Below are positions 20,981-35,512 of a stretch of DNA of 36,292 nt, piece after piece. The DNA lies in IMG/VR virus record IMGVR_UViG_2877285697_000006, positions 1 to 36,292 of that record; one strand, 5' to 3'. Made by a program: the position numbers and the translations under genes. The notes below the pieces were generated by a model. That model made no database searches, was not told the DNA's origin, and was given only the letters and a program-made list of their open reading frames with translations. This DNA is from a virus (taxonomy: Duplodnaviria; Heunggongvirae; Uroviricota; Caudoviricetes). Positions within the stretch are counted from its first letter, which is position 1; every line of letters begins with the position of its first letter.

Positions 20981-21940
20981 TCATTCGCCGATCTGGAGAA
21001 CTTTAAGAGCTTCCGGCTGTACTACAGTGAAGTCAATGTCCAGCCAGATTCTAGGCACGATCGCAGACTGGGCGCGGTACGTTGAATCGTCCAGATCTAG
21101 CTCAAGACCGCCCCACTCACCGATCATGATGCCGCTGTAATCGCCCAGCACGATCGTGTCAGCTGGAATAACACCGGAAGTAATTACATCGTAACCAGCC
21201 AGTTTGCCGTTTTCGATGATATAACCGGAAACGCCGTTATCTTTCAGGGTAGATTCCAGTTCAGCAGCAGTTGCACCGCTCATTGCAAACTTGATGGACT
21301 GTGCCGGAACGCCAGCGTCCGTAAGCTGAGCAATCTCCTTGAGGAAGTCTTTGTAAGAGAAAGCGGCTTTCTTAGTAACGCGACCACCGTCTACCAGTTG
21401 CTTAACCAGACCTTTCGGACCGCGCTCGTTGTCTTTGTCAGACAGAATCAGTTGTTCCAGTTTGATCCGAACAGATTTGTTAATGTGATCAGTGATCAGG
21501 GTAGCGATGCCCGGAACGGTTTTGAGGCTAGCCCTAGAAATTGGGTTCCCGCCTGCGAAAGTTTTCGGAGCCATTTTCACGTTTTCAAAGCTAGCCTTCG
21601 ATTCGGGGGCACTTCCATTTTCATCAACAAAACCAAAGGCTTCGACGCTGGAAGCAGTCATTTTTGGTACTGCAATCGGGCTATTCAGACCAGACAGAAC
21701 AGTCACACCCAGACGACCCAGAACAGACTGTGGAAGCAGCATTTCAACATAGGATTCGGTCAGCAGTTTTTCGTCGGTTACAGCTTCCAGAGTAGCTTTG
21801 GTGTTACCAGCAGAAGCAGCACGCAGAGCAGCAGCCGGAACGAATACAGAGCCACCACGAGCAGCACCGACCACGCTGCATTGCAGCACCAGCAGCCATT
21901 GCGGAATATTCAGCTTCATGAGCACCCAGAGTTTCACCAT
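20981..21940 (-). CDS. major capsid protein (HK97 fold); N-terminus probably supplied by the upstream protease-scaffold ORF
   Basis: 319-aa ORF with strong codon bias and capsid-like sequence; no SD before its ATG; MCP frame has a TGA immediately upstream. Confidence 0.75.
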   Translation of the reverse strand: MVKLWVLMKLNIPQWLLVLQCSVVGAARGGSVFVPAAALRAASAGNTKATLEAVTDEKLLTESYVEMLLPQSVLGRLGVTVLSGLNSPIAVPKMTASSVEAFGFVDENGSAPESKASFENVKMAPKTFAGGNPISRASLKTVPGIATLITDHINKSVRIKLEQLILSDKDNERGPKGLVKQLVDGGRVTKKAAFSYKDFLKEIAQLTDAGVPAQSIKFAMSGATAAELESTLKDNGVSGYIIENGKLAGYDVITSGVIPADTIVLGDYSGIMIGEWGGLELDLDDSTYRAQSAIVPRIWLDIDFTVVQPEALKVLQIGE

Positions 21941-22985
21941 CGATCAGGGAGCGGAATACGTTGTTCAGGTCAAAAGTTTTTTCCATGATTTGTTCCTTAT
22001 TAATTTGTTCGTTATTACGTTGAGCATTGATAATGTTATTTAGTGCCTTAGTGCGGAATGCTTCCGGCGTCATGTCTTTAACTGCCAATGCGCGTTTTAA
22101 TTCTTCGTCGTCAATATTTAGTTCCCGCGCGATCTCGCGAATTTCTAATTCGTCTTCTTCGGAACGTTCAGCCACTTCTTCGATTTTTTCTTCTTCAACC
22201 GGAGCGGCTTCACGTTCTTCTTTTACTTCTTCTGCTTCCCGAACAGTTGAACTATCATCATCAACACTTTCAGGATGTTCAGCGACTTTTCCGTCTTCGA
22301 GATTTTCATTTTCTTCATTCTCTTCAACTTGGCGCTCTTGAGTTTCTTCAACTTTCGGTTCTTTATTTTCTTCTACCGGAGTTTCTTCAACCTGAGCGGG
22401 TTCTTGTTCTTCTTTGATTTCTTCGATTTGTTCTTTAGTCATATCGCGTTTAGCCTCCAAATTAACTGTGATAGTATTTAGAGAGCGATTTAAACCGACC
22501 GTATCGTCAGCAGGAACGGTAACGAAACTTAATTCGTATGGTGCCCACTTAGTAACAATCAATTGCCCTTTGGCGTAATCGATGTGATATTCTTTAATGT
22601 CATAGCCGACAGAAATTTTTTCCATCGTACCTTCAATGACTTTATTACGAACATCATTAGCCAAAGTGCCATGTTTAGAGAATTTAACCAGAGCACGGCC
22701 TACGTTATCCGCATCGATTCGAGCGTCGCAGACTACACCTAAATGATTATCGAAATTATGATTGAACAGCAACGGAGCGTTATTATTCAGACGAGACAGA
22801 TCAACCGCTTCCGGTGTATGTACCAGAATTTCATCTAATACCACCATTTCTTGATTTTGCTCATCCCAAAATTGGCGCTGATAAGGCTGTGTACTTGAGA
22901 AAGCAATTTCAAATTCGTATTGATCGTTATGCCCTTCGTTAATAACTCCACCGTAACCGTTAAGATCGCGGCGAAATTTAAGCAT
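21804..22985 (-). CDS. prohead protease (HK97 S78-type) fused to acidic coiled-coil scaffold domain
   Basis: N-terminal ~180 aa with LLFNHNFDNHLG-type protease motifs, then glutamate-rich region; 3' end (RCCSWWLCIRSGCCSACCFCW) looks like out-of-frame translation of the MCP start. Confidence 0.7.
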   Translation of the reverse strand: MLKFRRDLNGYGGVINEGHNDQYEFEIAFSSTQPYQRQFWDEQNQEMVVLDEILVHTPEAVDLSRLNNNAPLLFNHNFDNHLGVVCDARIDADNVGRALVKFSKHGTLANDVRNKVIEGTMEKISVGYDIKEYHIDYAKGQLIVTKWAPYELSFVTVPADDTVGLNRSLNTITVNLEAKRDMTKEQIEEIKEEQEPAQVEETPVEENKEPKVEETQERQVEENEENENLEDGKVAEHPESVDDDSSTVREAEEVKEEREAAPVEEEKIEEVAERSEEDELEIREIARELNIDDEELKRALAVKDMTPEAFRTKALNNIINAQRNNEQINKEQIMEKTFDLNNVFRSLIDGETLGAHEAEYSAMAAGAAMQRGRCCSWWLCIRSGCCSACCFCW

Positions 22986-25119: not shown

Positions 25120-27024
25120 TTAGAACGATGTTACCCAGCTACGGCCTCTGTTTGGGCGTCTGGCGACGTTTTGACGTTGTGGTCGTGTGATTGGCTTAGT
25201 TTCTTCTATTTGCTCGTTAGATTGCGATTTAGGAGCTTCTACGGATTCTTCGACAACACGGTTTAAGCTGTCTTTCATTGCAATGAGTTTATCCCATGAC
25301 ATTTTTGAAAGAACGTAGCGAGAAGCCGCTGTAGCATACACGGCGCAGTCGAGCGCCTCGTTCCTAACGCCTGGGTTCTTTACCCACCTCACGCCAGTAG
25401 TAGTACGCTTAACAGATTCACTTAAAAGCTGATCGAGATAATCATCAGGAACGGTGTCTGATATTTCTAAGCCAATATGAGGATTATCTTTCAGGTTCCT
25501 AGCCAACATTTCACGAAATGCAGTTTTACCCACGTTAACGCCCAGCATAAGCAATTCATGACCACCTGTGCGGGTAGGTTTAACCGGAATGATCGGAGCG
25601 TTACCAGCAGAACTACCTTTGATAGCGTGTAAGTTCTTCCACTTGCCGCAAATACGGTATCCAGCTTGAGTGAATCGACCGTTCGATGTATCAAGGAAGC
25701 TGGCGAGCATAGGAACACGATCACCCGATACAGTAGTAAATTTGGTTTTATGGAAGTTGATTAATCTATCCCATACAGGGGATTCATATCGTTCACAGTT
25801 ATGATCGTAAAAGCTGCGATGATCCAGAATATAAATCTTATCCTTTGCCACGCCCATGATCGTAGTTTCTGCGCGATCTAATTGCTGGTCAGTACCCGCA
25901 CACAAGAAAATCACGTCATCAGGGATATTCTCGATAGAAACATCTGTTTTGAGTTGTTCCAGTTCATTTGCTTCTACTGCCGTGTCCTGATCGTCGTATA
26001 CCTTGCCTAACACGGTGTTAAAAAAGGATTGTAAATCAAAGGATTGCCACGCATGACTAAAATCAACCACACAAGCGCGAATCGTGCTGAAAGGTGAATA
26101 CAGACGACTGATCCAGAATCCGGCTACTTCACTTTCACGGGTTGCTCTCCACTCGCCTTGTGCTACTGCCCTGATTCGTTCCCCTTCTGTCCATGCGTTC
26201 TTACAGTGGGGGCAAATATAACGAGCGGTATCAGGATCGGGTAAGTTCTTACCATCAATGTTACGCCATTCAAATTGAACGTTTTCCCACTCGATCACCT
26301 GGTGTTCCCCGCAATGCGGACACGGAACAAAAAACATACGCATGTCGCTTGATAACCATTGCTGGTTAATGCTTCCCAGCTTACTGGTCGGGGTACTGGA
26401 TACGACTAATCGGCCTTCATCGCCAAAGGTAGTTAAACGGTTAGCAGCCAGTGCCACCGGATCACCTTCTTCTGAGGCTGTAGCAGCATCGATTTCGTCA
26501 AGCAATCCAACCTTTGCGGTCTTACCACGTAGGGTTGATGGACTGGTAAGCGATACCATGTACAGGAAGTGATTCGTTTTTAGCTGTAGCTGGTTATTGT
26601 TGTTAACCGCATTGCGATCATTCTTGTCTGTAACCACGTCTTTTAATGCATCACATGCTTCGATAGACGGTCGGATCTTACCCGCGAGATATTGAGACAT
26701 TTCTTTAGCGGTTGATTGTCCGATAATCATATTGCATGGATCGTTAGCCATCTGGTTAAACAGGATGCCGTTCAGGATGGTAGTCTTTCCGATCTGCGCA
26801 CTGGTCATCAGAACATACTTTTTCTTGTTCTCAAGGAAAGGAGCATCAATCATGCCTTTCTGGAATGACAGTAATTTAACTTTATCCCCCGCTTGAGGAC
26901 CATCTACCAGCACCATATTAGCTTCGCACCATTCAGAAGGAAGGAGCTTAGGCGGTGGAGTGATATATTTTGCGGCATTTTTAAGAATCTTTTTTAATTT
27001 TGCCTTATTTGAAATCAGTTTCAT
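25120..27024 (-). CDS. terminase large subunit, lambda GpA-like
   Basis: 634 aa; ATPase P-loop region (TSAQIGKTT), zinc/nuclease-like CPHCGEHQ...CPHCKNAW; SD GAGGGT. Confidence 0.85.
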
Positions 27025-27111: not shown

Positions 27112-27717
27112 ATGCTAATTAATCAGCAACAAAGAGATGTATTAGAATTAGCCTTTTCTTGTTGTACCGATCATGAATATCGTTTACCAGTTAAACATAA
27201 GCATTTAAAAACCGACTACACAACATCTGGCTTTAGTCGTGAGGAAGCTAAACAGATTTTAATCGAGTTGTATCGCGATCATGGGTATACCGATATTCAC
27301 AACTTCTTTAAGAAGCACCAAACATCACAGACAGAGTTTAATAGAGTTCGTGAATGGTTTGATTTTGACATTAAGCGATTCTATCGAGTAGATGACGGTA
27401 CAATCTATCGGTTGCAGTGGACACCGATTAGGGAAGTGCTTAAACAGAAGAGATTGAATCATGCCATTACACGCTATCGTAACGTGGCTTTTAAGAAAGG
27501 CTATGGTGATACAAGGGAACTATTCGTTGAACTCGCTAACGTGCGATATAGCCACTATTACAGGAATCCTAAAGAGTTCTTCGAAGTGCTGCGCAAAGTT
27601 GATATAAGTCGGGGTACATACTATTCACGGTTGAAGAAGTACGGGATTAAGGCAGAGTTCTTTATGTCGGTTGACGATGGAGAACTTTTTCCGATAAAAT
27701 GTAAGTCCTCTAAATAA
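27112..27717 (+). CDS. hypothetical protein (201 aa)
   Basis: ORF diverging from terL. Confidence 0.5.
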
Positions 27718-27745: not shown

Positions 27746-27979
27746 ATGACTATGACTACTAAAGCTACTCGCGGTCGCCCTGCCCGTTTTAACGCTGAAC
27801 AGATGGCTGATATTGCCTACGCTTACTATACAGCGGATCGCGGGAAGGAAGCGAAAGAACAGATTCTTAGTGAGCACGCTATATCGGTAGCTCAATTCTA
27901 TAAAAATATCAAGAAGTTAGATATTAAATTCTATGTTCAGATTGGCGACGGTCAAATCGTAGAAGCAACAGGTTTTTGA
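27746..27979 (+). CDS. small DNA-binding-like protein (77 aa), paralog of 31027..31209
   Basis: N-terminal RGRPARF motif; aligns along its length with the 60-aa ORF at 31027. Confidence 0.45.
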   Translation: MTMTTKATRGRPARFNAEQMADIAYAYYTADRGKEAKEQILSEHAISVAQFYKNIKKLDIKFYVQIGDGQIVEATGF

Positions 27980-28123: not shown

Positions 28124-28921
28124 TTACAGTCCGAAGTGTTCTAGCGATCCAACATTCTGACGAATCATGATAGTCGCTTTATTCTGAATCATGATCGTGT
28201 TATTCGGTTTAGGCAGTGTCAAAGCTGCTTTTTGTTCTTCTTCAAGAACACCCAATTCAACCAGCACCGGAAGCACATCAACAGTGAAAGAAAGTTGATA
28301 GTGAGCGTTCATGCTACAAAACGGTATCGCGGAATCATTAGCAACATACCCACACGGCTTGTTATTTTCATCATAGACGCGCTCAATGTATCCGGCAGTA
28401 CGTAAGGCCGTCAGTGCTTCTTTAACCTTCGTAGCGCCCTTTTTAGCACCTAACAGACGCGTCATTGAATGGCTATCTACGGATTTGCGATGATGTAGAG
28501 TAATCAGTTGCTTGTTCTCGCGAGTTTTCTTTAACGCCAGTTCGATCCAGTCGGTTTCTTCAAAGTCTGCATACGGGTTAACAGCTAAACGTTCCTGACG
28601 CAGTTTTTCATTTTCTTCTTTCAGTCGTTTCCATTCCTGAATAACAATCATTCGACGCTTAACATCGTAACCAGTGACAAGAGTCAGTGTCAGTTCTTCG
28701 TCAAGGTGATATTCGGTTTGTTCGCGTCCATATTGGTCAAAAAAGATGCGTCCAAATTTGGACTCATCTAATTCAAGAGAAGTAAGCATATTTTTAATAT
28801 CACGTTTAACATGCTTATGCTCTTTTTTGGTAAATTCAGCAATCTGACGAGAAGACATGGTCAGCGGTTTGGTGTTATCAACAACCAGAGACACGGAAGC
28901 AGTTTTAACAGCAGTATTCAT
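28124..28921 (-). CDS. phage regulatory protein Rha / antirepressor-like
   Basis: N-terminal SSRQIAEFTKKEHKHVKRDIKNML fits the Rha-family pattern. Confidence 0.65.
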   Translation of the reverse strand: MNTAVKTASVSLVVDNTKPLTMSSRQIAEFTKKEHKHVKRDIKNMLTSLELDESKFGRIFFDQYGREQTEYHLDEELTLTLVTGYDVKRRMIVIQEWKRLKEENEKLRQERLAVNPYADFEETDWIELALKKTRENKQLITLHHRKSVDSHSMTRLLGAKKGATKVKEALTALRTAGYIERVYDENNKPCGYVANDSAIPFCSMNAHYQLSFTVDVLPVLVELGVLEEEQKAALTLPKPNNTIMIQNKATIMIRQNVGSLEHFGL

Positions 28922-29015
28922 AGTAAAAATTCCCCTTAATTAACGGTTTTTTGCGATTTAATCCTCCCTGTTCCGGCAGCACCACCGGAACAATTTTATT
29001 TATAAGAGCTATTTC

Positions 29016-29201
29016 TTATTTGTTGTTAGCACACAATCCGCGTAAAGCCATTTGCAAAGGTGATGGTTTCGGTGCTTTGGTTTCGTCTTTATATTCCACA
29101 TCCACTGTTTCGGTAGCCCAGCCAAAGCCCTTAACATAACGACGACGGCGGGTTTCGATCACTCCTGGTTCACGTTCACGGGTAAAGGTTTTCATGTTCA
29201 C
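29016..29201 (-). CDS. small basic hypothetical protein (61 aa)
   Basis: ORF downstream of a sigma70-like promoter. Confidence 0.4.
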   Translation of the reverse strand: MNMKTFTREREPGVIETRRRRYVKGFGWATETVDVEYKDETKAPKPSPLQMALRGLCANNK

Positions 29202-29252
29202 ATCCTTTTAACAAATCTAGGTCAAGTAAGTTCAAAGTTGTCAAGTGCGATA

Positions 29253-29281
29253 ATCATAAAAAAGTGAGATTTATTTGTCAA
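29253..29281 (-). promoter_or_regulatory. sigma70-like promoter (TTGACA - 17 nt - TATGAT) on the minus strand
   Basis: Consensus -35 and near-consensus -10 with 17-nt spacer, about 45 nt upstream of the ATG at 29201. Confidence 0.5.
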
Positions 29282-29294
29282 CACCCCTTGACAA
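29275..29294. promoter_or_regulatory. perfect inverted repeat TTGTCAA-N6-TTGACAA overlapping the promoter -35
   Basis: 7-bp arms with 6-bp spacer; same half-site as the palindrome at 30655-30668. Confidence 0.4.
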
Positions 29295-29316
29295 GTCGCC
29301 AAAGTGTTGACCTAAC

Positions 29317-29784
29317 TTACAGCATTTCTAAGCCTTCATCGTAGCCGTAGAAGCTATTGTGAGAAGAAAAACAGATTGGTGCGTAGTCTTCGTCTTCCTC
29401 GTCTTCTTCATCTTGTTCTGGGGCTTCCTGAGCGGTTTCTTTGCCGTAGTTAAACATTGCTTCATCCAGTTCATAGACAGTAACGAAGCTACCTAAATCA
29501 ATGTCACCTGACCGGACTTGAAACGGCAGATCATCACGAACAATAATTGCTGGTAGATTCTGGTATTTCAGGCGTTCTTCATCGGTGAAGCAGTTAACAA
29601 CGATGGTAGGACGTTTATTTCTTCCGAAAACATACCATGCACTAGAGAAATGGGATTCATCGGTATTGTAAAGGATGTTATAACCACGTTCACGGAACAT
29701 CTTCATTAACTTGTCATTGTGAAAGCTATCTGCATCCAGACCCAGAAGGATAAAAGGAGTAGTGGTAGTCATTTTGTGGTTCAT
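29317..29784 (-). CDS. hypothetical protein with acidic C-terminal tail
   Basis: Start chosen at MNHKMTTTT with SD AGAGGA; track ORF extends to 29814. Confidence 0.5.
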   Translation of the reverse strand: MNHKMTTTTPFILLGLDADSFHNDKLMKMFRERGYNILYNTDESHFSSAWYVFGRNKRPTIVVNCFTDEERLKYQNLPAIIVRDDLPFQVRSGDIDLGSFVTVYELDEAMFNYGKETAQEAPEQDEEDEEDEDYAPICFSSHNSFYGYDEGLEML

Positions 29785-30360
29785 AGTGGAATCCTCTAAA
29801 AGAAAGTGAATCAAAGTAATTCTGATATTATTTATAAGAGAAAATTCTTGATGATTTTGGAAGGGATGGATTCAGTCGGCTTCGCCTCCTTCATAGATTT
29901 GATTAAAAGACCAGCAAACGTAACTCGGATCTTATAGTTAATATAGTTATCTTTGAAGAAATAATAATCAGGAAGCAATTTCAGCAACCGCAGGTTGCGA
30001 TCCCGAAGGGATAACCAATACCTTTCTAGAAAGTGATTGTTACTCACTTCGTTCGTTTACTAGAATCAGTTATCATCTAGTATTAAATCCCTTTCTAAGA
30101 AAATCCTTTCAAAAGTGAGTGAACGCCGTAGGCGTGAACGTGAGCGAAGCGAACTATCCAATCCCTTTCGAATCCTGCTTGCAGGTCTTAGAAGGTGTTG
30201 GTGGGCGCTACGCGCACGGCTACGCCGTATTCTTTTTGCGAGATCTTTCTTGAACGTAGTGAGAGAAAGCGAGCAAAAAGGAGAACGTTAGTTCGAATTT
30301 TATATTCTATGGTCTGTGGGGTATAATCCCTTTCAAGATCATGCACTTACGTTATTGAAG

Positions 30361-30460
30361 TGTAGGGTTAGTGTAGGTGTGTAGGTTTCATAGAGTAGGT
30401 TTACTGGCTAGTGTAGTGTAGGCCAATCCCTTTAAAGTGTAGGTGTGTAGTGTAGGTTTT
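30361..30460. repeat. cluster of about 7 direct GTGTAGG(T) iteron-like repeats
   Basis: Same-orientation repeats within 100 bp in a noncoding region, followed by an AT-rich stretch. Confidence 0.55.
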
Positions 30461-30654
30461 CTATCAAAATTTTTGACAAAAAATTCTTGTATATTATTTA
30501 ACCAAAAAATCACCAAAAAGCGGCGTAAACTCATGATTTAAAAGTGATTTTCAAAAGATCTCCGTGCCATAATAGGTTATAAAGGTTGATAATCATTATC
30601 TGCCATTTTCAAACAAAAATTTTGATACACTTTTCTCGCTTAGGTCATGGGCAT

Positions 30655-30682
30655 TGACAAGTGTCAAGAACTATTTTATACT
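30655..30682 (+). promoter_or_regulatory. strong sigma70-like promoter (TTGACA - 16 nt - TATACT)
   Basis: Consensus -35, near-consensus -10; -35 embedded in palindrome TTGACAagTGTCAA. Confidence 0.6.
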
Positions 30683-31026
30683 TTTTCTCACTGGTAGGGG
30701 TTGAAATTTTCCAAACAATCCCCATATAGATGATAAGCATGATTTTTTCGTGTATAAATACATGCATGAAAAATGATTGTTCACTTCTGAAAACCTCCTG
30801 ACTCACTGTTAACTCATACAGCACTGGTTAGATACACAGTGCTTTTTCGGTTGAATATTGTACGGATTGATTAATTATTAATCTTCTCTTTAGCAATTCG
30901 TGCTCCCACTGATCGGATATACAGTGGTTTTACAGAGTTTTTGAAAATCATTTTTATAAATAGAATTGTTCAGAGCGAAAAGCTCTTTTTAAAGAAATCA
31001 TTATTCCAGATTTAGGAGGATTCAAG

Positions 31027-31209
31027 ATGGCACGACCTGTTAAGTTCACTCGTGAAATCGTTTTAGAAATGGCAAAGCGTTATTTTGAACTGACACCTGA
31101 TGTAGTGATGGGTGATTGGTTTAAAGGTGAAGGCATTGATCAATCAACCTTCCATAAACTTTTAAAGAAGTATGAAATTCGCGTAAAGATTACCGCCGAG
31201 GTGTGGTAA
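31027..31209 (+). CDS. small DNA-binding-like protein (60 aa), paralog of 27746..27979
   Basis: SD AGGAGG upstream; MARPVKFTRE... aligns with the 77-aa protein. Confidence 0.45.
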   Translation: MARPVKFTREIVLEMAKRYFELTPDVVMGDWFKGEGIDQSTFHKLLKKYEIRVKITAEVW

Positions 31210-31250
31210 TAACCTTTGACTGAGAATTATATGATGGCTTTAAAAATAAA

Positions 31251-31281
31251 AAGCCTCCCTGTTGGCGCAAGGAGGCTTTTG
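31251..31281 (+). terminator. hairpin terminator (AGCCTCC...GGAGGCT + TTTT)
   Basis: 7-bp stem, 12-nt loop, short T-run. Confidence 0.5.
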
Positions 31282-31325
31282 ATATGAACAATTAAAACTA
31301 ACACAGCATTCAGGAGTATTTATAA

Positions 31326-32327
31326 ATGAAAAATTCTAAGCGCATCACCTTCAACCTGTTCATTAAATCCAACGGCAAACTGAACATTACCGTTATGGAA
31401 GGTAAAGCAAGCAAACAAGACAAATCCTTTGAAGTAGTTTCCGGTAAGACTCTGACCGAAATGCGTCAAAATGCTGGCATCAAAGACGGTGCTGAATGGC
31501 AGATCACTAACCGTTTCGACAAACGTCACGTTAAACCTACACTGGTAGAAGGTGAATCCGTTTATTGCTTCGCTCGTGCTGTTAAAGCCGATGAGACTTA
31601 CTATCTCGCTGTTATTAAAACTGCTTCCGGCTTCCGTGCTGTAATGCATCACAAGAGCAAGCGTAACGAATACGGCGTAGAGACCCAGGAAGTTGCAAAA
31701 CGCTTCCGTACTGTTGCTACTGAATCCACTGTAAAGGATGTTTCTGGTACTGTTAACACCGCTAAAGGCGGTTCCTTCTACAACCACGCATTACAGGTTA
31801 CTTCCTCCTTCTTCTGCAAAAAAGAAGCTGTGAAAGAAGTTGCTCCGGTAGTAGTTGAAGAAGTTAAAGAAGAAGTTGCAGTGGTTGAATCTTCCGAAGT
31901 TGAAGCACTGAAAGCACGCATCGCTGAACTGGAAGCTGAAAACGCATCTCTGAAAGCTGAACTGGCAGCACAGGAAACCACTTTCGAAGTAGCAGCGGTT
32001 GAAGTTGAAGCAGTTGAAGAAAAATCCATTGATGAAGAACTGGAAGAACTCCTTAACTATCGCTGGGGTAACGGTGAAGAAGTAGAACAGGAAGAACAGA
32101 AAGAAGCTGATCCGGTAGTAGTTCCGGTTGAAGCAGAATCCGCACCAGTTACTAACTTTGAAACACTGCGCAATAACTTTATGGCTAAATTCAAAACTAG
32201 CTGGGAAGATACCGAAGAAGAACAAGAAGAGATTGATGTAAACGAAGACGAGATCCGCGAAGCACAGATGGCACTGCATGACGCTATCTATGACACCAAC
32301 TACAGCGCCTACGCATACGCAGCTTAA
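31326..32327 (+). CDS. highly acidic protein with coiled-coil segment (333 aa), function unknown
   Basis: Strong high-expression codon bias; SD CAGGAG; glutamate-rich C-terminal half. Confidence 0.6.
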   Translation: MKNSKRITFNLFIKSNGKLNITVMEGKASKQDKSFEVVSGKTLTEMRQNAGIKDGAEWQITNRFDKRHVKPTLVEGESVYCFARAVKADETYYLAVIKTASGFRAVMHHKSKRNEYGVETQEVAKRFRTVATESTVKDVSGTVNTAKGGSFYNHALQVTSSFFCKKEAVKEVAPVVVEEVKEEVAVVESSEVEALKARIAELEAENASLKAELAAQETTFEVAAVEVEAVEEKSIDEELEELLNYRWGNGEEVEQEEQKEADPVVVPVEAESAPVTNFETLRNNFMAKFKTSWEDTEEEQEEIDVNEDEIREAQMALHDAIYDTNYSAYAYAA

Positions 32328-32342
32328 TAGAGGGGTGAATCT

Positions 32343-32585
32343 ATGATGAATCAAAACAAAGAATTTCTGGGTAACTTGATGTTAGAAATTATCAAAATGA
32401 AAGAAAGAATGGTAGCGATGGAATCAGAGATTAAAACTCTTAAAGCTGATAATAAGGCGTTGAGAAAGTCCTTAAAGCTGATTGATGAGACTAATGCGGT
32501 TATGATGGATCATGTATTTCCTGAGTGGCGAAATGAAACTAAACCTACACAACATAAGAAACCTACACTTCGAATTGTTGCATAA
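32343..32585 (+). CDS. small coiled-coil protein (80 aa)
   Basis: ORF; followed by two stable CGAA-loop hairpins. Confidence 0.5.
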   Translation: MMNQNKEFLGNLMLEIIKMKERMVAMESEIKTLKADNKALRKSLKLIDETNAVMMDHVFPEWRNETKPTQHKKPTLRIVA

Positions 32586-32868
32586 AAAAGGGACTCCGAA
32601 GAGTCCCTAGTAAGTTTAGGTTAGGTTTGCACAACAAAGATGAGGTTATAATGAACATAATGCTACATTATTCTTTAAAGCCAGAAAAATAACCGCCCCG
32701 AAGGGCGGGAGGATTAATACTCAATCTATACTTGTTATGTTTTTATGATGTATAGATCACTGACTATGAAAACACTGTACTGGAGTGTGTTTTATGGCTT
32801 TTAATCGGGAACTCTCTTTCGAAAATTCCCTGTTAAAACCACATAAGGAGAAAAGGCAGATTACAATA

Positions 32869-33042
32869 TTATTTAGTGTCTGATTTACAGCAACTAAAAA
32901 GAATAAACAAGATTAAGCATACCCAGCCGTAAGGCGTACCGATTAGAAATTTGAAAAACACCACCAGCGATATAAAAATCAATTTAATGCCAGCGACGAT
33001 AGTCAAAAACAGCAGAGTAGCGAAATAGACAAAAAGATCCAT
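32869..33042 (-). CDS. small two-TM membrane protein (57 aa), holin-like topology
   Basis: Not in ORF track; SD AAGAGGA upstream of ATG at 33042; two hydrophobic helices. Confidence 0.3.
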   Translation of the reverse strand: MDLFVYFATLLFLTIVAGIKLIFISLVVFFKFLIGTPYGWVCLILFILFSCCKSDTK

Positions 33043-33095
33043 AGATAATCCTCTTTGAAAACGACCATCATCTATAGTTCAATTCATCGATTTAA

Positions 33096-33197
33096 TTAAT
33101 GATACTTGTAAGCATTACACACAGCAGAAATGCCAATATGTGCCAGTGAATATACGATAGTTAATCCTACAGCCAGATAAATCAAAAATTCAACCAT
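33096..33197 (-). CDS. small single-TM peptide (33 aa)
   Basis: SD GAGGA upstream of ATG at 33197; the longer track ORF 33096..33365 is a chimera that runs into the IS. Confidence 0.2.
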   Translation of the reverse strand: MVEFLIYLAVGLTIVYSLAHIGISAVCNAYKYH

Positions 33198-33241
33198 AGG
33201 TAAATCCTCAAATAAGAAAAAGGTTAGCGGGGGGTGATTCC

Positions 33242-34535
33242 CTGAGGAATCCCCAGAAAACAAGACAGGCATAGTGAGATGTGATCTAATTGATTGTGCT
33301 AACAATTTCAAGGAGATCACCACTATGCCTGCACGTTCATTATGCCAAAATTTCCTTAACAACATACTGGCCCCTTTGCATCTTTACCGTCAAAAATCAC
33401 TGATTGACGCAACTAATGCTGTAATAAATGGCGCTTCCCTCACACTTACCAGTATCGGGCGTCATTTAACCGGTACGGCATCAGTTAAAAACAAAATAAA
33501 GCGGGTGGATCGACTGTTGGGGAATCGACATTTGCAAAATGAGGTTTCCACCATTTTTCAGCGAATTACCCAAAAGATTACGCGGGGAATGTCTCGTGTT
33601 GTGATACTCATTGACTGGAGTGCTTATCATGCCTCTCGTTTTCAGCTTTTGCGGGCAAGCCTGGCATGTGACGGGCGTTCTTTACCGTTGATGAGTTGTG
33701 TCGTTCCATCATCACAGACAGCGAATGCAGATGTACATGAGCGTTTTCTGGAATCGCTTGCTGAGTGCTTTTCCCCCGGGACTGATGTCATTGTTATTAC
33801 AGATGCCGGTTTTCAGGGGCGATGGTTCCAACAGCTCCGCTCCCGTGGCTGGACCTATATTTGCCGGGTACTGGGCAATCATTATTACAATGTTGGTAAT
33901 GGCTGGGAAAAGGTGTCGGACTCAGGCACAAAAGCATCAACGACAGCAATTTATTTAGGTGAAGGCCTGCTGGGTCGAGATAAAAATGCACAACATGAAG
34001 GGCATTTTTATCTTTATAAAAGTAAGCCTAAAGGTCGTAGATTTAAACGCTCGAAGGAAAGAGCAACCAGACCATCGGTGACGGCTAAAGCTCGTACTGC
34101 CGGGAAATCACCATGGTTTATTTTCACAAACAGTACTGAGTTATCGCCAAAACAGGTAATGAAATTATACAGCCGTAGAATGCAAATTGAGCAAAATTTC
34201 AGGGATGAAAAAAATCCTCGCTGGGGATTTGGACTACGGTTTGGTGCCAGTCATTCATCCGGGCGGGTCACGGTATTGAGTCTGAGCGCAACATTAGCCA
34301 GTATCATTATGTGGTTAAGCGGTTTCAGCCTGGAAAACAAAGGGATACATCATAAATATCAGGCAAATACAGTGAAGCACAGGCGAGTCATCTCGCTATT
34401 AAAACTGGCGGAGAATGTGATTCGACATTCTCCACTCATACTAAACACACTGTCACTTGACGCAGGGCTGAAAGTTCTACAGCAACGGTATACCAATATG
34501 ATAATGGTTTACTAAATTTTCTGGGGATCCCTCAG
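33242..34535 (+). mobile_element. IS10-like insertion sequence (IS4 family), about 1.29 kb
   Basis: Terminal inverted repeats CTGAGGAATCCCCAGAAAA (left) and CTGAGGGATCCCCAGAAAA (right, reverse complement), 19/19 with 1 mismatch; flanking direct repeat GGGTGATTCC at 33232-33241 and 34536-34545 (9-bp TSD with 1-bp ambiguity). Confidence 0.85.
33325..34515 (+). CDS. IS10-type DDE transposase
   Basis: N-terminal region ...KNKIKRVDRLLGNRHL closely matches the IS10 transposase as recalled (IKRIDRLLGNRHL); SD AAGGAG; start at MPARSL rather than track start 33274. Confidence 0.85.
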   Translation: MPARSLCQNFLNNILAPLHLYRQKSLIDATNAVINGASLTLTSIGRHLTGTASVKNKIKRVDRLLGNRHLQNEVSTIFQRITQKITRGMSRVVILIDWSAYHASRFQLLRASLACDGRSLPLMSCVVPSSQTANADVHERFLESLAECFSPGTDVIVITDAGFQGRWFQQLRSRGWTYICRVLGNHYYNVGNGWEKVSDSGTKASTTAIYLGEGLLGRDKNAQHEGHFYLYKSKPKGRRFKRSKERATRPSVTAKARTAGKSPWFIFTNSTELSPKQVMKLYSRRMQIEQNFRDEKNPRWGFGLRFGASHSSGRVTVLSLSATLASIIMWLSGFSLENKGIHHKYQANTVKHRRVISLLKLAENVIRHSPLILNTLSLDAGLKVLQQRYTNMIMVY

Positions 34536-34599: not shown

Positions 34600-35154
34600 T
34601 TAAGACACATCAAATTCATCGTCTTCTTCTGGTTCTTGTTCCGGTTCATCCATTAATGGTAATTCTTCTTCCTCGTCTTCTCCCAAATCTGCATTTTCGA
34701 ACAAGTCCCCTACTTCATTTAAACGACGCTCGATAATCTCTCTTAGCTTATTCTTCAATGTTTTCTGATCAGTGGCGGATTCTAAAATTTCTAAAGCATC
34801 GATCGTACAAATCTGCAAAATAGTCTGTTTCACTTTCCCGCAGTATTCCGCTAGTTCCTGTTCTACATAACCGACAGGAATCAGGAGATTCATTTTTTCC
34901 TGGTTCTCTCGTTCGGCTGCATCTGCCATTGCTCTTTCTCTGCGGAGACGTTCTTGATCAATCGCTTCTTTGATTGAAGTTTGTTTAAGTGGGTTAATTA
35001 CGTTCTTTAGCACCCAATCGCAACCTTCCTTTGCCGGAACACGCCTCGTATTGGTATTGTAAGGTAGTCCCCTTTCTAACCATCGCTTACCGCCACCATT
35101 CAATGAATAGCCATATAAACGGGAAATTTCTGTAAGGGTTAATTCTTCTTTCAT
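34600..35154 (-). CDS. terminase small subunit candidate (Nu1-like DNA-binding protein)
   Basis: N-terminal HTH-like LTEISRLYGYSLNGGGKRWLERGLPY, coiled coil, acidic C-terminal tail; SD GGAGGA; candidate cos-like GC island upstream. Confidence 0.45.
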   Translation of the reverse strand: MKEELTLTEISRLYGYSLNGGGKRWLERGLPYNTNTRRVPAKEGCDWVLKNVINPLKQTSIKEAIDQERLRRERAMADAAERENQEKMNLLIPVGYVEQELAEYCGKVKQTILQICTIDALEILESATDQKTLKNKLREIIERRLNEVGDLFENADLGEDEEEELPLMDEPEQEPEEDDEFDVS

Positions 35155-35305: not shown

Positions 35306-35512
35306 ACTGATCACGTTTTAAAATCTCACACGCACATCAAATACCGGGGTGCCGAAAACTCCCTTTATTTCATCCGTGGAACAGTACCTTTTTAATTTGT
35401 CAAGCATTAATTTCTTAATTTAATTACTAAATCTCATCCCAATAATTGAAAAAATATCAAAAATCAATAAAGTAAGCATCTAAAAGTCAGTCCATACCAA
35501 AAGAGGTATAAA

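Follow-up and report, generated by a model that had tools for sequence, protein, structure and literature searches.

The ori1/crr system of phage P4 consists of many irregularly spaced short octamers that are bound by the alpha initiator, a primase-helicase, with a second cluster of octamers at a distance. The repressor of phage Mu joins an N-terminal DNA-binding domain to a leucine-rich coiled coil and acts on short repeats (O1-O3) spread over ~200 bp between divergent early promoters; its gene is divergent, has its own promoter and is expressed in lysogens. Origins of Staphylococcus aureus pathogenicity islands (SaPIs) carry iterons of 5-6 nt in 6-12 copies, with cognate Rep-ori specificity (PMC9371898). 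The iteron-type oriV of RSF1010 bears the single-strand initiation (ssi) signals ssiA and ssiB on opposite strands (PMC8567376), of which ssiA has the GNA mini-hairpin CCGAAGG, and the complementary-strand origin of G4 has GCGAAAGC (PMC13037366, PMC8567376). GNA mini-hairpins occur at the G4 complementary-strand origin, RSF1010 ssiA and the early promoters of N4; GCGAAGC is the canonical extraordinarily stable DNA mini-hairpin, and only GNA triloops form such a structure (PMC13037366). The stretch of DNA compared here with these systems (36,292 nt, IMG/VR virus record IMGVR_UViG_2877285697_000006; hereafter the window) is the genome of a temperate siphophage of ~36.3 kb that resides as a prophage in Escherichia coli and Shigella chromosomes, with ~41% G+C versus ~51% in E. 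coli. Its noncoding control region carries an array of GTGTAGG repeats, and the rightward early operon downstream encodes a 333-aa protein. From comparative sequence analysis we propose, with moderate confidence, that the array and the 333-aa protein are the replication origin and the initiator of the phage. The array and a block of mini-hairpins beside it (~30119-30330) would form one module, functionally paired with the protein.

Where the original prediction had counted about seven direct GTGTAGG(T) repeats, nine were found, six of them exact and three with one mismatch (at 30393, 30411 and 30445), and they are non-random: the window holds 12 copies of GTGTAGG versus 2.4 +/- 1.6 expected, a number reached in 0 of 100 shuffles. 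The spacings are 11, 8, 14, 18, 5, 21, 8 and 5 nt, and the array is kept in relatives apart from one 22-nt copy-number indel. At least three to four direct repeats in the same orientation, as expected of iterons, are thus present. That no convincing open reading frame (ORF) crosses the ~980 bp at 30048-31026 was likewise confirmed: the six ORFs of at least 40 aa in this interval encode 43-59 aa, and PGAP annotates no coding sequence at the corresponding place in related E. coli genomes. ORF 30388-30534 was rejected as a gene on comparison with relatives, as was a 71-aa ORF at 29832-30047, which has stops or frameshifts in 10 of 11 relatives; because the latter is broken, the noncoding region extends to ~1.2 kb (Table 1). 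Further features came to light that the original prediction does not mention: a second repeat family, a group of GC-rich mini-hairpins, the near-invariance of 29976-30460 among relatives and three terminator-like hairpins of the leader.

Conservation was determined from an alignment of 11 IMG/VR relatives and one E. coli genome. The block that ends with the array and a second block at 31280-32680 (the 333-aa and 80-aa genes), each with 93-100% identity, stand out as the most conserved parts of the early region. Between them the AT-rich segment, promoter, leader and p60 gene have 64-88% identity, and the leftward genes mostly 70-85%. The first block (29976-30460) is complete in only 18 of 56 E. 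coli genomes; the remaining genomes have its first 143 nt only (some of them part thereof) or its first 51 nt, followed by a different module.

The modules that replace it were compared across 42 loci (26 from IMG/VR, 10 informative metagenome contigs, five E. coli genomes and the window), and the repeat type matched the type of the downstream protein in 42 of 42. The types are: (i) type A, with GTGTAGG in 9 copies (10 in locus L036) at spacings of 5-22 nt and a protein of 324-342 aa beginning MKNSKRITFN; (ii) type B, with TTTCAGGGGCAAA (CAGGGGCAA) in 9 copies at spacings of 13, 21, 22, 30 and 41 nt and a protein of 313-319 aa beginning MLFSANFF; (iii) type C, with CGGGGA in 14 copies, many at 11-nt spacing, and a protein of 333-337 aa beginning MKQNNFSITVY; (iv) type D, in a distant relative, with CTAAAC in 5 copies and a protein of 377 aa. 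The arrays of types A-C have 9-14 same-orientation copies over 100-250 bp, with spacings of 11, 21 and 22 nt being frequent. Two more distantly related loci continue this series: L075, whose protein is 78% identical, keeps GTGTAGG, and L074, whose protein is 46% identical, has GTGCAGG, a one-base change of the core, in 5-6 copies.

Among the genes of the early region only the large protein, together with p80 (type A only), partitions with repeat type, while in tblastn searches the alleles of the small terminase (TerS), p201, p77, Rha, p155 and p60 are spread across the types. For example, p60 alleles a1 and a3, 53-55% identical to each other, are each found with both type A and type B. The repeats had also been suggested as sites of the small helix-turn-helix (HTH) proteins; this did not hold, the alleles of p60, p77 and p201 being independent of repeat type. 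Since the repeat type switches with the N-domain of the 333-aa protein, and not with the small HTH proteins, Rha or the small terminase, the repeats are very probably the binding sites of that N-domain. Furthermore, none of the 42 loci is a mismatched hybrid of repeat and protein, despite the shuffled cassette between array and gene; recombination within this shared 0.87-kb cassette would be expected to generate such hybrids, and we read their absence as selection for a cognate protein-site pair. Co-variation would thus supply the linked specificity pair that characterizes iterons. The type-B locus L032 still has two copies of GTGTAGG at the right-hand border of its CAGGGGCAA array (L032 3681-3700), which implies a recombination breakpoint inside or beside the arrays.

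The same distribution bears on a packaging role, in which the repeats would be sites of the small terminase, like cosB R-sites or pac. The phage has a lambda-type, gpA-like large terminase and a Nu1-like small terminase, and cos regions, too, are usually noncoding, strongly conserved and equipped with repeated terminase sites; yet the small terminase is 83-99% identical to that of the window in nearly all A, B and C loci in which the gene is present (one type-C locus, 52%), and it does not sort with repeat type. Its gene also lies ~4 kb away, beside the intergenic stretch richest in A+T (35385-35484), a likelier cos, and we regard a packaging site as scarcely credible. That stretch is the least stable and most AT-rich 100 nt in the vicinity of the small terminase gene and is a candidate cos region; the gene itself and that of the gpA-like large terminase are 7.5 kb apart and separated by genes on the opposite strand.

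The 333-aa protein starts with a type-specific N-domain (residues ~1-170), followed by a coiled coil resembling a leucine zipper (~190-225) and by an acidic linker; its C-terminal tail is conserved and reads LHDAIYDTNYS in type A and LHDEMYGTNFS in type B. Types A and B share 32% identity in the C-terminal half only, including the coiled coil, and their N-domains are unrelated; type C shares part of the N-domain with type A, at 25% identity. The N-domain is beta-rich in an AlphaFold2 model built from eight sequences (pTM 0.68), and the coiled coil gave only sub-threshold matches to bZIP- and DivIC-type Pfam families. A search of 1.84 billion representative proteins returned seven matches, with no homologue of known function among them, and the structure search found no structural neighbour. 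The gene has no promoter of its own and lies behind four terminator-like hairpins, an arrangement that fits delayed-early expression like that of lambda O and P.

Left of the array lies a block of small GC-rich hairpins. Under the criteria of a perfect stem of at least 4 bp with at least three G:C pairs, the window has 18 GC-rich triloop hairpins, six of them within 245 nt (29984-30228), and the window and four relatives have 5-8 per locus. In these loci 24 of 26 triloops are GNA or its complement TNC, versus 2 of 12 elsewhere in the window. GNA loops are found on the plus strand at 29984, 30000, 30123 and 30144 and on the minus strand at 30205, 30216 and 29876. The block is nearly invariant within each type, type B included, and the stems covary between relatives (H1, H3 and H6); MAFFT lost the register of H1 across relatives, and its covariation was read from the raw sequences with no formal count. 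Each H1 variant directly precedes ATCCC-GAA-GGGAT. In the adjacent pair at 30205-30228, which is followed by a T-run on the plus strand, 48 of 48 cells are paired, with one compensatory pair (the closing C:G of H6 becoming G:C). A small RNA ending at hairpin 30216-30228 was considered and rejected, as the T-run is not conserved, being lost in L074 and type B.

Two marks of ssi signals are present, namely stable GNA hairpins and placement of signals on both strands near the candidate origin, and by analogy the mini-hairpins may be priming signals in single-stranded DNA. This role is preferred over one in RNA because the GNA loops fall on both strands. A role in RNA may still be compatible with the folding of 29980-30360, where the plus strand folds better than shuffles with z = -6.15 and the minus strand with z = -3.7. 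Indeed, transcription from the promoter-like element at 30299-30327 through the repeats, whose non-template strand is G-rich, could yield an R-loop primer, as in ColE1 and mycobacteriophage prophage origins, or a regulatory RNA. RNA-based origins are known in prophages without a Rep protein (PMC7157519), promoter-like elements stand upstream of the type A and B arrays, and G exceeds C on the plus strand of all arrays (36 to 8, 59 to 25, 92 to 46 and 56 to 26), with 13-19 G-runs in those of types B and C. Such a model, however, leaves the strict co-variation with the N-domain unexplained, and it is further at odds with the degenerate -10 hexamer at 30299-30327 in most type-A relatives and with the loss of the T-run noted above. 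As the GNA loops again point to DNA and Rfam gave no match, we consider an R-loop or RNA element improbable. At the gathering threshold Rfam had 0 matches in the whole window, and an E-value scan of 29000-33300 gave chance-level hits only.

A second repeat family, AATCCCTTTC, is interspersed with these elements; its three exact copies in the window all fall within 30017-30434, and a factor shared by the entire prophage family may bind to it. It also occurs inverted at 29856-29867 and within hairpin 30000-30012, and is common to all repeat types. In L075 it is inverted and fused to GNA hairpins (TAGAAAGGGATT...GCCCC-GTA-GGGGC, 3 copies). The extended repeat GTGTAGGTTT occurs inverted twice, at 32544 and 32562 (32544-32568, minus strand), 18 nt from one another within the 3' end of p80; this pair encodes KPT...KPT, is kept in close type-A relatives and is missing from L075, which has an inverted pair CCTACAC-N18-GTGTAGG directly after its promoter.

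An origin and its initiator are preferred as the function of array and protein on five grounds: (i) the design matches that of lambdoid O/ori, where a variable DNA-binding domain is joined to a constant partner-binding domain and is inherited with its sites independently of an immunity-like cassette; (ii) short multi-copy iterons occur in SaPI origins (PMC9371898); (iii) the phage has no other recognisable replication function; (iv) the position of the gene behind terminators fits delayed-early expression; (v) the closest parallels of the adjacent mini-hairpins are priming sites, including those of RSF1010 oriV (PMC8567376). Under this proposal, in which physical binding, origin firing, strand opening and priming are all inferred, induction would lead to transcription from the promoter at 30654 through the leader terminators and to production of p60, the 333-aa protein and p80. 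The 333-aa protein would dimerise through its leucine zipper, and its N-domains would fill the nine same-orientation G-rich heptamers. The resulting oligomer would distort and open the neighbouring DNA, upon which the GNA-triloop mini-hairpins (four on the plus strand and two or three on the minus strand) could extrude from the single strands and signal entry or priming to the host primosome (DnaG or PriA). A host priming route would be needed because the phage has no recognisable helicase, loader, primase or polymerase.

Several observations weigh against an origin. The repeats are irregularly spaced, and their units have a conserved core of 6-9 nt, shorter than the 17-22 bp of classical iterons; the type D array is weak, with its 5 copies in mixed orientation. 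The region has no IHF consensus and no DnaA box, its only match to the latter having one mismatch (30749), and the whole window is below chance in such boxes. The 333-aa protein shows no homology to known Rep, O or DnaA families, and the Mu repressor, too, combines a leucine zipper with a DNA-binding domain and acts on a multi-site array. No relatives were found on plasmids. The 42 loci are not phylogenetically independent, the argument from them resting on a handful of recombination events, and the window copy may be a defective prophage, or else the one-base insertion in its capsid gene may be a sequencing error. The AT-rich stretch, on sequence comparison, is part of the exchangeable cassette, a module other than that of the repeats, and is missing beside the array in the relatives with an alternative cassette (allele 2; L032, L014 and L035). 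The original prediction, that iterons and an adjacent AT-rich element make an origin, therefore stands in part: the repeats co-vary with the N-domain downstream and an AT-rich stretch is present, but the latter recombines separately and DnaA and IHF sites are lacking. Cumulative GC skew over the whole genome, put forward as a check on that idea, has its extremum at ~26-27 kb and tracks gene orientation, leaving the origin unlocated by this measure.

Co-variation speaks for cognate binding only, not for the effect of binding, and the main rival takes the 333-aa protein as a Mu c-like repressor or switch and the array as a multi-site operator or enhancer of the divergent early promoters. The operons on either side of the array are divergent, the strongest promoter is downstream of it, and it occupies the place of the lambdoid cI gene; the genome has no recognisable CI-like repressor; and the inverted pair of L075 suggests at least autoregulation. 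We nevertheless judge this function unlikely. The distance from array to promoter varies, at ~195 nt in the window versus 25-50 nt in the allele-2 relatives, and the elements of an immunity type (promoter, palindromic operators and p60) sit in a cassette that recombines independently of the array. In addition, a gene with no promoter of its own behind four terminator-like hairpins is poorly placed for expression in a lysogen, and 9-14 same-orientation sites exceed the usual need of a regulator.

The sequence from 30461 rightward constitutes the exchangeable regulatory cassette. The first 40 nt of its AT-rich stretch are among the least stable 0.1% of 40-nt windows, and seven other intergenic spots are as AT-rich or more so; in type C the array itself contains an AT-rich spacer of 43 nt. 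The consensus-like promoter of the original prediction was upheld, with a match at 11 of 12 positions and both hexamers kept in ten relatives of the same allele, and the alternative cassette (L032, L014 and L035) has its own TTGACA-17-TATACT. That the region might be merely a long 5'-untranslated region holds for its right third (30690-31026), a leader with terminators, and has no bearing on the repeat module. The covariation term of the leader consensus fold is +0.27 (~0); because covariation thus adds nothing to that fold, only the individual leader hairpins are claimed. The four terminator-like hairpins between promoter and 333-aa gene imply regulated read-through or antitermination, and a short RNA of ~160 nt, from promoter to t1, is possibly made. 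Hairpins t1 and t2 are two copies of a single unit (CACTG-N10-CAGTG with a T-run behind it); in t3, which also has a T-run, a stem of 5 bp carries a GAAAA pentaloop, as in lambda boxB. The leader 17-mer CTTTAGCAATTCGTGCT (30885-30903) is nearly invariant in all cassette alleles and is present in two copies in L032, L035 and L074 (allele 2 duplicated). The HTH modules of the p201 C-terminus (p201, 27112-27717), p77 (27746-27979) and p60 share the pattern GRP-x-K/R-F ... S-x-F-Y/H-K-L-L-K-K-Y-x-I, which resembles resolvase or IS3-type HTH, none of them having a family assignment; the three proteins are probably phage regulators.

Table 1. Positions in the window of the control region, its elements and the genes referred to in the text
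Feature	Position	Strand	Remarks
Whole noncoding divergent control region	29815-31026		between leftward p155/p61/Rha and rightward p60/333-aa/p80 genes
Hyper-conserved block	29976-30460		93-100% identity among 11 relatives
Hairpin H1, GCAACC-GCA-GGTTGC	29984-29998	+	same position: GCAGC/GCTGC in L074, GCCCC/GGGGC in L075
Hairpin H2, ATCCC-GAA-GGGAT	30000-30012	+	invariant, all types
Second repeat family, AATCCCTTTC (core ATCCCT/AGGGAT)	starts 30017, 30086, 30160, 30325, 30425 (span 30017-30434)	+	5 copies
Hairpin H3, ACGCC-GTA-GGCGT	30123-30135	+	type B GCCAC-GCA-GTGGC; type C GCGCCC-CGCA-GGGCGC
Mini-hairpin GCGAAGC	30144-30150	+	kept in types A and B
Adjacent hairpins GCGC-TAC-GCGC and ACGGC-TAC-GCCGT	30205-30228	-	loops GTA (GNA triloop) on minus strand
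Promoter-like TTTATA-17-TATAAT	30299-30327	+	reads into GTGTAGG array; -10 is TGAAAT in most relatives
GTGTAGG(T) array	30360-30456	+	9 direct copies in 97 nt; proposed iterons
AT-rich stretch	30461-30535		73% A+T over 75 nt; first 40 nt 85% A+T
Operator-like palindrome ATCAAAATTTTTGAC	30463-30477		within AT-rich stretch
Extended -10-like element TGCCATAAT	30565-30573	+	TGCTATAAT in most relatives
Second palindrome copy AACAAAAATTTTGAT	30612-30626		
Near-consensus sigma-70 promoter TTGACA-17-TATACT	30654-30682	+	best of the region; for rightward operon
5' leader	30690-31026	+	~340 nt; 5' hairpin 30697-30723 and second hairpin with compensatory changes
Terminator-like hairpin t1	30820-30847	+	
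Terminator-like hairpin t2	30906-30931	+	
Terminator-like hairpin t3	30972-30990	+	
Ribosome-binding site AGGAGG	31014-31019	+	
p60, small HTH protein	31027-31209	+	paralogue of p77 and p201 C-terminus
Strong 13-bp hairpin with A-run and T-run flanks	31249-31280		bidirectional terminator-like; between p60 and 333-aa gene
333-aa protein	31326-32327	+	~0.87 kb downstream of array; proposed repeat-binding initiator
p80, coiled-coil protein	32343-32585	+	present only with type A
Large serine recombinase, 564 aa	1487-3181	+	left-end genes
Minus-strand block: large terminase, then portal, protease-capsid, tail, fibre and endolysin	25120-27024 (large terminase, gpA-type)	-	
Rha/Ant-like protein	28124-28921		
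Inserted insertion sequence (IS)	33274-34515		DDE (PF01609) transposase, between p80 region and small-terminase gene
Nu1-like small terminase (TerS)	34600-35154		

The other ~9 kb of the genome encode proteins without assigned function, except for the Rha/Ant-like protein, the Nu1-like small terminase and the inserted IS. With Pfam, PHROGs, NCBIfam and PADLOC, neither replication genes (helicase, loader, primase, polymerase or known initiator) nor a CI-like repressor were detectable in the 36 kb, and the window has no tRNA or tmRNA genes. A prohead protease-major capsid fusion (20981-22985) is a single ORF of ~667 aa in L001, L004 and L007; in the window it is split near 21867 by a one-base insertion into overlapping ORFs of 393 and 319 aa. 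The IS is missing from L001 and L004 and therefore recently inserted in the window copy, while other IS are present in the early region of relatives (IS3 in L031 and ISApl1 in L033).

The prophage family was found in 58 of 5,426 complete E. coli genomes (~1%). It is flanked by hicA/yncJ/rlhA, with hicB, annotated as a truncated pseudogene, cut at the junction. As a serine recombinase is encoded and hicB is truncated at the junction (window 1 and 36292; L007 13449-13757), the prophage probably integrates into hicB, which encodes the antitoxin of the hicAB toxin-antitoxin pair; a literature search returned no paper about a prophage at this site. A DNA search of 50,697 phage records and 72,556 plasmids returned no relatives of the control region, the sole match in these collections being 69 nt inside the 333-aa gene, to a Proteus phage; searches of genome contigs gave no match, and P0121 and P0123 had no match in IMG/VR. 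The phage collection contains no cultured member of the prophage family, and the closest large terminase among isolated phages, that of Escherichia phage DCP80 (141 kb), is only 44% identical. This distribution bears on whether the array is a centromere-like partition site, or a handcuffing or incompatibility site, of a plasmid-prophage, with the 333-aa protein as centromere-binding protein. The 11-nt direct repeats of type C upstream of an operon do resemble parC/tubC centromeres, and the protein has a coiled coil; but all 60 copies in the 58 genomes are chromosomal (60 of 60, with 0 on plasmids), a serine integrase and the hicB insertion likewise speak for chromosomal residence, and no motor of the ParA, ParM or TubZ type was found, which makes a partition or incompatibility site very improbable.

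The entire early region of this family consists of proteins without assigned function, and linking the array to one of them gives the 333-aa protein a testable role and marks a probable origin. The element is most suitably classed as an iteron-type origin module that has an uncharacterised initiator candidate, unrelated to known ones, and an unusual battery of GNA mini-hairpins. If confirmed, it would represent a new family of initiators whose DNA-specificity domains can be swapped; such a family could be put to use in compatible replicons and in the prediction of cross-interference between phages. It would also place natural GNA mini-hairpins at the origin of a double-stranded temperate phage, such hairpins being so far mainly those of single-stranded phages, IncQ plasmids and N4 promoters. 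More tentatively, and with doubt prevailing, the locus may belong to an unrecognised class of phage replicon, in which a leucine-zipper protein with a new beta-rich domain reads strand-asymmetric G-rich heptamers, possibly in single-stranded form, and GNA mini-hairpins on both strands recruit host priming directly. Such a class would explain how a 35-kb temperate coliphage replicates without its own helicase, loader, primase or polymerase. Moreover, co-variation across mosaic prophages can match DNA sites to orphan proteins without homology.

Compared with the systems described at the outset, the locus differs from Mu in that the 333-aa gene occupies a distal place in the rightward operon, behind terminators, and that the repeats recombine independently of the promoter cassette. 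It resembles P4 in its irregular short repeats and in having further copies at a distance, although these extra inverted GTGTAGGTTT copies (32544 and 32562) are not conserved in L075. With SaPIs it shares short multi-copy iterons and a cognate protein specificity, deduced here from co-variation; SaPI iterons, however, flank a central AT-rich region, some of them in opposite orientation, just downstream of rep, and the SaPI Rep is a self-loading winged-helix helicase, whereas the 333-aa protein has no ATPase motifs and a beta-rich N-domain. Like the RSF1010/IncQ oriV and the G4 sites, the locus combines an iteron array with small GC-rich hairpins on complementary strands, and it contains the exact GCGAAGC. 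IncQ plasmids encode their own helicase, primase and initiator, and their ssi signals are two 40-nt inverted repeats; window-type loci, in contrast, have 5-8 separate mini-hairpins that do not resemble known ssi in sequence, and the phage encodes no recognisable primase. Lambda has four 19-bp iterons inside the O gene with an adjacent AT-rich element, whereas the window has nine heptamers 0.9 kb upstream of the gene; the 333-aa protein has no detectable sequence or fold likeness to O, and no P-like or DnaC-like loader was found. As in the lambdoid phages (lambda and the Stx phages), however, an array is apparently read by the variable N-domain of a protein with a conserved C-terminal part, array and protein are exchanged together, whatever the immunity cassette, and the gene of the putative initiator lies downstream of the early rightward promoter, behind terminators.

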